From a virus (taxonomy: Duplodnaviria; Heunggongvirae; Uroviricota; Caudoviricetes): a stretch of 29,610 bases of DNA. The stretch covers positions 1 through 29,610 of the IMG/VR virus record IMGVR_UViG_2541047745_000005; one strand, written 5' to 3'. Below are positions 166 to 980 of this stretch, one piece after another. The notes under the pieces were generated by a model, which saw only the letters and a list, made by a program, of their open reading frames with translations, ran no database searches and was not told where the DNA came from. Positions within the stretch are counted from its first letter, which is position 1. The number at the start of each line of letters is the position of its first letter. The position numbers and the translations under genes were made by a program.

Positions 166-980
166 GTATGGAGCTGATGGTTAAAGCGATGAAAATTCGA
201 GTGGGTAATCCATTGCGAAAACTGGTTCTGATCAAGCTGGCTGATAATGCCAGCGATCAGGGTGAGTGCTGGCCCAGCTATCAGCATATTGCTGACCAGT
301 GCGAGATTAGCAAACGTTCTGTGATGAATCATATTGCGGCCCTTTGTGAGTCCGGGCTGGTAAAAAAAGTCACCCGGAAAGGTGAAAAAGGTAACTCAAG
401 TAATATCTATCTCCTTCATCTGGATGGTGCAGGAGATTCACTAGGGGGTAGTGCAAATAATTCACTATCTGGTGCAGCAAATTCACCAGGTAGTGCAGGA
501 GTTGCACCAGGGGGTAGTGCAGGAGATTCACCCAGAACCAGTCACTCTTTTGAACCAGTCAAAGAACCAGTCAATGAACCAATAGCTGTTGGTGCATCTG
601 TTGATGAGTCCGTGCGAGTTCGTTCAAACCGACCGGAATACTCTCCGGAGTTTGAGCAGGCATGGCTGGTATATCCCAAACGTGCTGGTGGCAATTCAAA
701 ATCTGCAGCCTTCAAAGCCTGGAAAGCCCGTTTGAATGAGGGGGTAAACCCCGAAACCATGCTGGAAGGTGTGAAACGCTACGCGGGCTGGGTATCTGCG
801 ATGGGTAACAGCGGCACACAATTTGTGAAACAGGCTGTCACGTTCTTTGGTCCGGATCGTCATTTCGAAGAATCCTGGGAAGTTCCTGCGGTATCTGCAG
901 CCAGACGCGAGGACCCGTACTTCAAAGCCAGTTACGACAACGTGGACTACAGCCAGATCCCGGCAGGATTCAGGGGGTGA
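162..980 (+). CDS. putative replication initiation protein (N-terminal HTH domain, low-complexity linker encoded by iterons, C-terminal domain)
   Basis: GGAGG RBS at 151-155 before ATG 162. N-terminal segment (LVLIKLADNASDQGECWPSYQHIADQCEISKRSVMNHIAALCESGLV) looks like a winged-HTH; internal Gly/Ser/Ala-rich linker coincides with direct DNA repeats, an arrangement like lambda O. Sits at the head of a nin-like gene string. Confidence 0.5.
   Translation: MSMELMVKAMKIRVGNPLRKLVLIKLADNASDQGECWPSYQHIADQCEISKRSVMNHIAALCESGLVKKVTRKGEKGNSSNIYLLHLDGAGDSLGGSANNSLSGAANSPGSAGVAPGGSAGDSPRTSHSFEPVKEPVNEPIAVGASVDESVRVRSNRPEYSPEFEQAWLVYPKRAGGNSKSAAFKAWKARLNEGVNPETMLEGVKRYAGWVSAMGNSGTQFVKQAVTFFGPDRHFEESWEVPAVSAARREDPYFKASYDNVDYSQIPAGFRG
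424..533. repeat. five tandem ~18-21 bp iteron-like direct repeats (consensus about GGT(A)GTGCA RRA RTTCAC YA) inside the replication gene; candidate ori
   Basis: Copies read directly at about 426-443, 447-467, 471-488, 489-509 and 513-533. Followed by 3.5 copies of GAACCAGTCA at 535-584. Confidence 0.5.

Follow-up and report, generated by a model that had tools for sequence, protein, structure and literature searches.

The initiator gene and its prophage setting

The window analysed here, a stretch of 29,610 nt, begins with the last part of an upstream gene, after which the plus strand carries an ORF (162..980) for a 272-aa replication initiator, the counterpart of SfV orf39 and of the HTH_36 protein in the 'Eru6' replication regions of Stx phages. 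Downstream lie genes for a PerC-like protein, Dam, a protein with a LexA DNA-binding domain only, RusA, KilA-N, DUF968/HNH and Q, and the remainder of the window belongs to an SfV-like myovirus prophage, with genes for terminase, portal, capsid, sheath, tape measure and an invertase; its early region is lambdoid. The window's replication module was found to contain neither a helicase nor a loader gene and is therefore a single-initiator module. The LexA-type protein (108 aa; 2121-2447, plus strand) carries the DNA-binding domain (PF01726, aa 1-65) without the peptidase domain, is kept in the module beside Dam and RusA, and could be a competitor for SOS boxes. The ORF of the DUF968/HNH-like protein (3664-4659) overlaps by 29 nt that of the Q antiterminator (4631-5425), which matches a DnaJ-type CXXCXGXG zinc finger, and a serine recombinase (28662-29225; Resolvase and HTH_7 domains), probably a Gin/Hin-type tail-fibre invertase, ends the tail-gene region.

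The sequence-only reading had taken the gene at 162..980 for a replication initiator, and database comparisons bear this out. The whole protein matches phrog_270 'replication initiation protein' in PHROGs (E 7e-88), and the gene is 98-99% identical at the DNA level to genes annotated as 'replication protein' in SfV (orf39), mEp460, cdtI, many Stx2c phages and Stx2a_WGPS2, the Eru6 representative (98.7% by blastn). The N-terminal half of the protein falls in PHROG 'replication initiation O-like' families, with PHROG 270, 8540 and 391 matched, and the C-terminal half in families labelled replication protein, DnaD-like helicase loader or primosomal protein. Besides SfV, mEp460, cdtI and many Stx2c and Stx2a phages (Eru6 type), the module occurs with other C-terminal domains in prophages of Vibrio, Pseudomonas, Klebsiella, Salmonella, Aeromonas and Shewanella and in a Stenotrophomonas phage. 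PLSDB contained no small plasmid with this gene as sole replicon, the matches being phage-sized circles or larger records. Homologous initiator genes are carried there by records of 28-54 kb (e.g., NZ_CP148393.1, NZ_CP118695.1 and Arsenophonus nasoniae plasmids), and the hosts of these phage-sized circular 'plasmids' include E. coli, Klebsiella, Microbulbifer, Shewanella, Pasteurella and Arsenophonus, which suggests extrachromosomal forms, either phage-plasmids or induced phages, that use this replication module.

The HTH_36 protein of the Eru6 type was noted by Fagerlund et al. (2022) in a classification of the gene content of Shiga-toxin phages that names no origin or iterons (PMC8951638). 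According to the same source, nothing is known of the replication of Eru-type phages and their replication proteins are uncharacterised. The Eru6 layout consists of a Rha-family gene and then the HTH_36 gene, beside cI; the window starts inside the gene that precedes the initiator, and phages related to it carry Rha or antirepressor genes upstream of the initiator.

Three parts of the protein can be distinguished. An N-terminal winged-helix DNA-binding domain (aa 1-88; 162..425, plus strand) contains the HTH_36 match (PF13730, aa 17-67), which scored 44.1 bits against a family cut-off of 25; its identity is 68-86% across homologues from diverse Gammaproteobacteria. DnaD_N was also matched, below its cut-off. 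Phage_rep_O (PF04492) gave no match in the initiator in a Pfam search at E ≤ 0.01, where only HTH_36, DnaD_N, B-block_TFIIIC and HTH_20 were listed, and by this comparison the protein is not a homologue of lambda O and lies outside the Phage_rep_O family. The N-domain profile aligned over aa 34-83 with winged-helix structures of the GntR/FadR/MarR type at weak E-values of 0.01-0.1, and equally weakly (E 0.01-0.1) with a chromosome replication initiation protein (chain 2vn2). The alignment to these solved regulators places the predicted recognition helix at aa 48-60 (EISKRSVMNHIAA; nt 303-341, plus strand), a position that we infer from the weak-scoring profile matches. The C-terminal domain (aa 140-272; 579..977, plus strand) is exchangeable and is presumed to recruit host replication proteins. 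Between the two domains lies a linker encoded by repeated DNA.

Repeat arrays in the linker-coding segment

Two adjoining repeat arrays, both within the initiator ORF, encode aa 89-142, a Gly/Ser/Ala/Pro stretch followed by RTSHSFEPVKEPVNEP that joins the HTH_36 domain to the C-terminal domain, as the sequence-only reading had described. The first array comprises five GTGCA-N5-T(T/G)CAC sites within 427-531, all on the plus strand: iteron 1 (GTGCAGGAGATTCAC, 427..441), iteron 2 (GTGCAAATAATTCAC, 451..465), iteron 3 (GTGCAGCAAATTCAC, 472..486), iteron 4 (GTGCAGGAGTTGCAC, 493..507), which is a perfect dyad and matches on both strands, and iteron 5 (GTGCAGGAGATTCAC again, 517..531). Their start-to-start distances are 24, 21, 21 and 24 bp. 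A search of the whole 29.6-kb window with the pattern GTGCANNNNNTTCAC (≤1 mismatch) returned eight matches, six of which are the five clustered sites with iteron 4 counted once per strand; the mean over 100 dinucleotide shuffles was 2.5, and eight was not reached in any of them. The array has the properties by which iterons are recognised, namely at least three direct sites of ~17-22 bp in regular helical phasing.

The second array (534..585, plus strand) follows directly. It contains an element of 28 bp, AGAACCAGTCAC-TCTTTT-GAACCAGTCA (534-561), and further units, so that exact copies of GAACCAGTCA lie at 535-544, 552-561 and 564-573 and a fourth copy, which is degenerate (GAACCAATAG), lies at 576-585. 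The significance of this array comes from the comparative data presented below, since its four hits were reached by 12 of 100 shuffles and are not significant window-wide. Tandem Repeats Finder detected both arrays (periods 21/24 and 12), and the coordinates first given for them, 424-533 for five copies of a ~20-bp motif and 535-584 for 3.5 copies of a shorter one, proved right to within 3 nt.

The least stable DNA nearby lies on the left flank of the iterons. A nearest-neighbour stability scan identified an AT-rich segment (377..426, unstranded; GC 0.35) that holds the least stable 40-mer of the first 3 kb and encodes the 'wing' of the N-domain (KGEKGNSSNIYLLHLD). On the right flank (541-600) AT-richness is moderate, with a GC content of 0.42 and an instability at about the 95th percentile. 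Consensus scans found no DnaA boxes, IHF sites, Fis sites or GATC cluster in or beside the arrays, and a promoter scan found nothing. A terminator-like hairpin on the minus strand (385-370) is of a kind within chance expectation.

The repeat region also has an open +3 frame (window 451-585; 44 aa, MQIIHYLVQQIHQVVQELHQGVVQEIHPEPVTLLNQ...), which yields peptides that homologues use in their real frame, including VVQQIH, and HPEPVTL as in Shewanella. Two homologues of 174 aa (L032) and 118 aa (L063) are frameshifted and end just past the second array's element as ...HPEPVTLLNQ*; they may represent pseudogenes or products consisting of the N-domain only, or may result from sequencing errors. Most database entries for the initiator gene (P0001-P0097) are labelled 'partial', which suggests that short-read assemblies often break in its repeat region, and the repeats themselves may account for such breaks.

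Covariation and conservation among homologues

About 250 related loci were compared overall, in sets of 14 annotated phage loci, 80 diverse genomic loci with N-domains 68-86% identical to that of the window, and 80 IMG/VR loci with N-domains identical or 99% identical to it; a further 120 IMG/VR contigs were picked by DNA pattern alone. The diverse loci came from Enterobacterales, Pseudomonas, Aeromonas, Shewanella, Aliivibrio, Marinomonas, Pasteurellaceae, Halomonadaceae and Cardiobacteriaceae. All 84 diverse homologues that were scored have 3-7 dyad-symmetric 5-N5-5 sites directly after the winged-helix domain, and 301 of 309 start-to-start intervals measure 21-24 bp, or about two helical turns. 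Near-identical genes (n = 83) vary in iteron number, with five copies in 79, six in two, seven in one and eight in cdtI, and they carry 2 to 5 GAACCAGTCA-like units each. The sequence-only reading had named the absence of the repeats from such genes as evidence that would count against an origin here; none of the 83 has fewer than five iterons, and this objection therefore falls away.

The reading frame of the iterons is not conserved. Within 55 of the 84 arrays, the iterons of one array stand in differing frames; in PseuP_222 one iteron yields VVQQIH in place of GAGxSP, and one is inverted. The encoded peptides are unrelated between iteron classes (GAGDSP, GGAGAA, TPVPPES, PMPPKS, PSDKMSP and GIAGD). 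These comparisons show that the iterons are kept as DNA, whatever their frame or orientation, with selection evidently acting on the DNA and not on the peptide.

The sequence of the iterons would be expected to co-vary with the N-terminal domain if that domain recognises them, as had been proposed, and it does so in 84 of 84 homologues at the predicted recognition helix. Residues 52, 55 and 56 predict the half-site class without exception across these loci, counts that include related sequences without phylogenetic correction and represent roughly 6-8 independent classes. Arg52 with a residue other than Arg at 56 goes with GTGCA/GTGAA half-sites (GTG[CA]A; 66/66, the window included), Arg56 with GTGAC-N5-GTCAC (7/7), and Ser/Thr52 with Arg/Lys55 accompanies TGCC(G/A), TAGCA, GGCCC or GGGCA types (11/11). 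In Min27, both half-sites show the same base change (GGGCA-N5-TGCCC). The Arg56/GTGAC pairing was found in three backgrounds (Vibrio phage D67, Erwinia/Izhakiella and Aliivibrio), each of which, the helix aside, resembles class-A proteins no less than it does the other Arg56 groups; L057, for example, has an identity of 0.88 to a class-A protein and of 0.72-0.74 to other Arg56 groups. As these backgrounds are no closer to each other than to class A, the association does not trace to one inherited event. The complete covariation supports recognition of the iterons by the N-domain of the initiator, which it favours on comparative grounds.

Whereas the iterons differ between classes, the DNA directly after the last iteron hardly varies. 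The sequence CC/CA-AGAACCAGTCAC-TCTTTT-GAACCAGTCA(AT-GAACC), with ≤1 mismatch per 10-mer, was present at 87 of 90 diverse loci. In its common frame the element encodes RTSHSFEPVxEP, where R-T-S-H comes from the first 10-mer and E-P-V from the second, and two frames are thus in use within one gene. Among loci of canonical layout, the synonymous codons AGA (53/53), AGT (55/55), CAC (54/54), TCT (53/53), GAA (54/54) and GTC (54/54) are fixed, compared with an average top-codon use of 50% at conserved N-domain columns; the 10-mers served as a selection criterion for part of this set, but they do not include TCT, the first base of AGA or the last base of CAC. In 81 unique, unselected loci the element had a median of 2 mismatches per 28 nt versus 5 for the 28 nt that specify the invariant peptide KLVLIKLAD (Mann-Whitney p = 2e-11), and its conservation had no three-base (codon) periodicity. 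Shewanella genes read the same DNA as HPEPVTLEPV with a spacer 2 nt shorter, and Aliivibrio and Avibacterium have the element with other spacings and frames. Whether the host is of low, mid or high GC, no part of the gene has a lower GC content than the element (e.g., 0.46 vs 0.62 for the C-domain in the high-GC group), whose 10-mers are direct repeats spaced 12-17 bp.

The pattern-only scan of IMG/VR returned 120 contigs with one copy of the element each, and all 113 evaluable copies shared their strand with the N-domain motif and lay downstream of it by no more than 520 nt; at least 28 different recognition helices were represented. Exchange of C-terminal domains points in the same direction. 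A mosaic junction lies at about 568-589, with blastn hits in different phages spanning query 1-407/425 or 413/428-720; N-domain, iterons and second array form a single unit of inheritance, from which the C-terminal domain is swapped separately, a modularity of the lambda type. The C-domains and the neighbouring helper genes vary widely, the latter encoding a DnaB-like helicase, a P-like protein, a 'replisome organizer' or a primase-helicase, or being absent. Two E. coli phages, Stx1_132418 and phiP27, have the window's C-domain joined to unrelated N-domains, with their own intragenic iterons and, at the equivalent place, their own second array: TACAGAGAATAC x3.7 with period 12 in Stx1_132418 (L173 1373-1491), and AAACATGATCCGCAAG-type repeats containing Dam GATC sites in phiP27 (L174 about 1320-1500). 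One iteron of phiP27 is read in a shifted frame (DPSDSG vs LTLQNLD). Because the same C-domain with another N-domain comes with another second array, this array follows the N-domain family and not the host or the C-domain, and recognition by the conserved part of the initiator is therefore favoured over recognition by a host factor. Across the loci compared, the invariant element is shown to be tied to this N-domain family, not to host or C-domain, and the parallel arrangements in Stx1_132418 and phiP27 suggest that iterons plus a short direct-repeat array may be a general design of such intragenic origins.

A candidate origin and its alternatives

Taken from comparative sequence evidence, the segment 427-585 is probably the cis-acting replication origin of this SfV-like prophage, placed inside the linker-coding part of its own initiator gene; the earlier proposal that the repeats mark the ori position is thereby strengthened. 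Dimers of the N-terminal winged-helix domain would bind the five dyad-symmetric 5-N5-5 iterons, phased by about two helical turns, and the resulting nucleoprotein array would destabilise neighbouring DNA, either the GAACCAGTCA repeats on the right or the AT-rich segment 377-426 on the left. The C-terminal domain would then recruit the host helicase or primosome, a role assigned to it because the module is without a helicase or loader gene. Binding, DNA opening and origin firing by the initiator at 427-585 are all steps that we infer from the layout. The element at 534..585 is the proposed site of DNA opening or helicase loading. It is also possible, if somewhat less than an even prospect, that the 28-bp element is the universal origin core of a large family of HTH_36 initiators in Gammaproteobacteria, recognised by a conserved surface of the N-domain other than its specificity surface, possibly as single-stranded DNA after melting, and that the iterons provide interchangeable specificity.

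The repeats could instead merely encode a flexible, low-complexity linker and expand and contract by slippage without any function as DNA. The Gly/Ser/Ala/Pro-rich peptide would fit such an account, as would the copy-number differences between close relatives (5-8 iterons, 2-5 second-array units) and the frequency with which contigs break in the gene, as seen in the many 'partial' entries, but one DNA motif is translated in more than one frame and orientation, its dyad symmetry, 21-24 bp phasing and fixed synonymous sites are properties of the DNA, and the covariation with the recognition helix is complete while the peptides are unrelated between iteron classes. We therefore regard this explanation as highly improbable, and an origin of the repeats by chance or by slippage alone was rejected on the evidence of frame, orientation and covariation. 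A role in autoregulation or copy control only, through an intragenic transcriptional roadblock or handcuffing, with the true origin elsewhere in the phage, accords better with the data, since covariation speaks for recognition and not for origin function; iteron-binding Rep proteins commonly autoregulate, and RepR of pIGRK binds its origin and represses its own gene (PMC6854812). An operator would be expected at the promoter, however, not in mid-gene, no other repeat array was found within the 29.6-kb window (which starts inside the preceding gene), and phased sites next to a conserved low-GC element, co-inherited with the DNA-binding domain, match origins of the lambda type, so that we consider autoregulation alone quite unlikely.

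The second array might be kept for reasons other than DNA opening or helicase loading, mainly as a recombination junction for swaps of N- and C-modules or as the site of an unknown host factor. Mosaic breakpoints at about 568-589 do fall immediately after the element, and the C-domains and helper genes beyond it differ widely. Selection for evolvability, on the other hand, would hardly be able to hold 28 bp near-invariant from Vibrio to Stenotrophomonas, and a site for a host factor or for the C-domain is difficult to reconcile with the fact that, in the same host and joined to the same C-domain, other N-domain families use different second arrays. The element moreover consists of direct 10-mers at 12-17 bp spacing, resembling the repeats of DNA unwinding elements, and we judge a junction or host-factor site to be unlikely, with opening or loading the preferred role.

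The arrangement can be compared with several known origins. Lambda has iterons with internal dyad symmetry in the middle of gene O, and its N-terminal domain and iterons form a specificity unit from which the C-terminal domain is separate. Iteron plasmids such as RK2, F and R6K, as well as oriC, place an array of initiator sites beside direct repeats of 11-13 bp where the duplex opens. The present locus is like the latter, by analogy only, in its initiator-site array adjoining short direct repeats, but its element is only moderately AT-rich and without DnaA boxes, IHF sites or GATC motifs. The likeness to lambda put forward in the sequence-only reading holds in part. Here, as in the lambda ori within gene O and in gene 18 of P22 and phage L, several ~20-bp dyad iterons lie mid-gene and encode an inter-domain linker, and N-domain and iterons form a specificity unit that is exchanged separately from the C-terminal module; the initiator itself is non-homologous to lambda O (HTH_36), the window contains no P-like partner gene, and where lambda has a long AT-rich tract, the flanking tract here is moderate and a sequence-specific 10-mer repeat element, near-invariant across the family, is found. 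Iterons inside the initiator gene are described for lambda O, P22 gp18 and phage L gp18 (PMC8022706), with the origin arrangement presumed for the latter two. The experimentally characterised origin of the pIGRK/pHW126 plasmids is also alike in having two parts, with plasmid-specific iterons (IT1-4) beside a family-wide conserved region (CR, ~20 bp), both required in cis and both bound by the winged-helix protein RepR (PMC6854812); that origin is located upstream of rep and not inside it, and those plasmids are thought to replicate by rolling circle.

The intragenic-iteron layout of the lambda type is thus known, and it is carried here, as judged from sequence, by an unrelated initiator family in an SfV/Stx-type prophage. 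The review of Weigel & Seitz (2006) reportedly catalogues phage replication modules, single-initiator ones included. No prior description of this origin or of the invariant element was found in the accessible literature, and an earlier in-silico prediction is possible, either there or in the SfV genome paper. The present analysis adds an element that is near-invariant and independent of reading frame, together with a predicted recognition code of simple form.

Toxin output is influenced by the replication level of Stx phages, and for the non-lambdoid 'Eru' types no account of the origin or of how the initiator works has been given. Our results narrow the origin candidate to about 160 bp, predict a recognition code that relates helix residues 52, 55 and 56 to the half-site, and provide a clear case of a cis-element constraining coding sequence across reading frames. 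If the 28-bp element is indeed a universal core, single substitutions in the recognition helix, such as N56R, would re-target the origin from GTGCA to GTGAC, and the element would represent a coding segment so constrained as DNA that lineages keep the DNA and change the frame of the protein.
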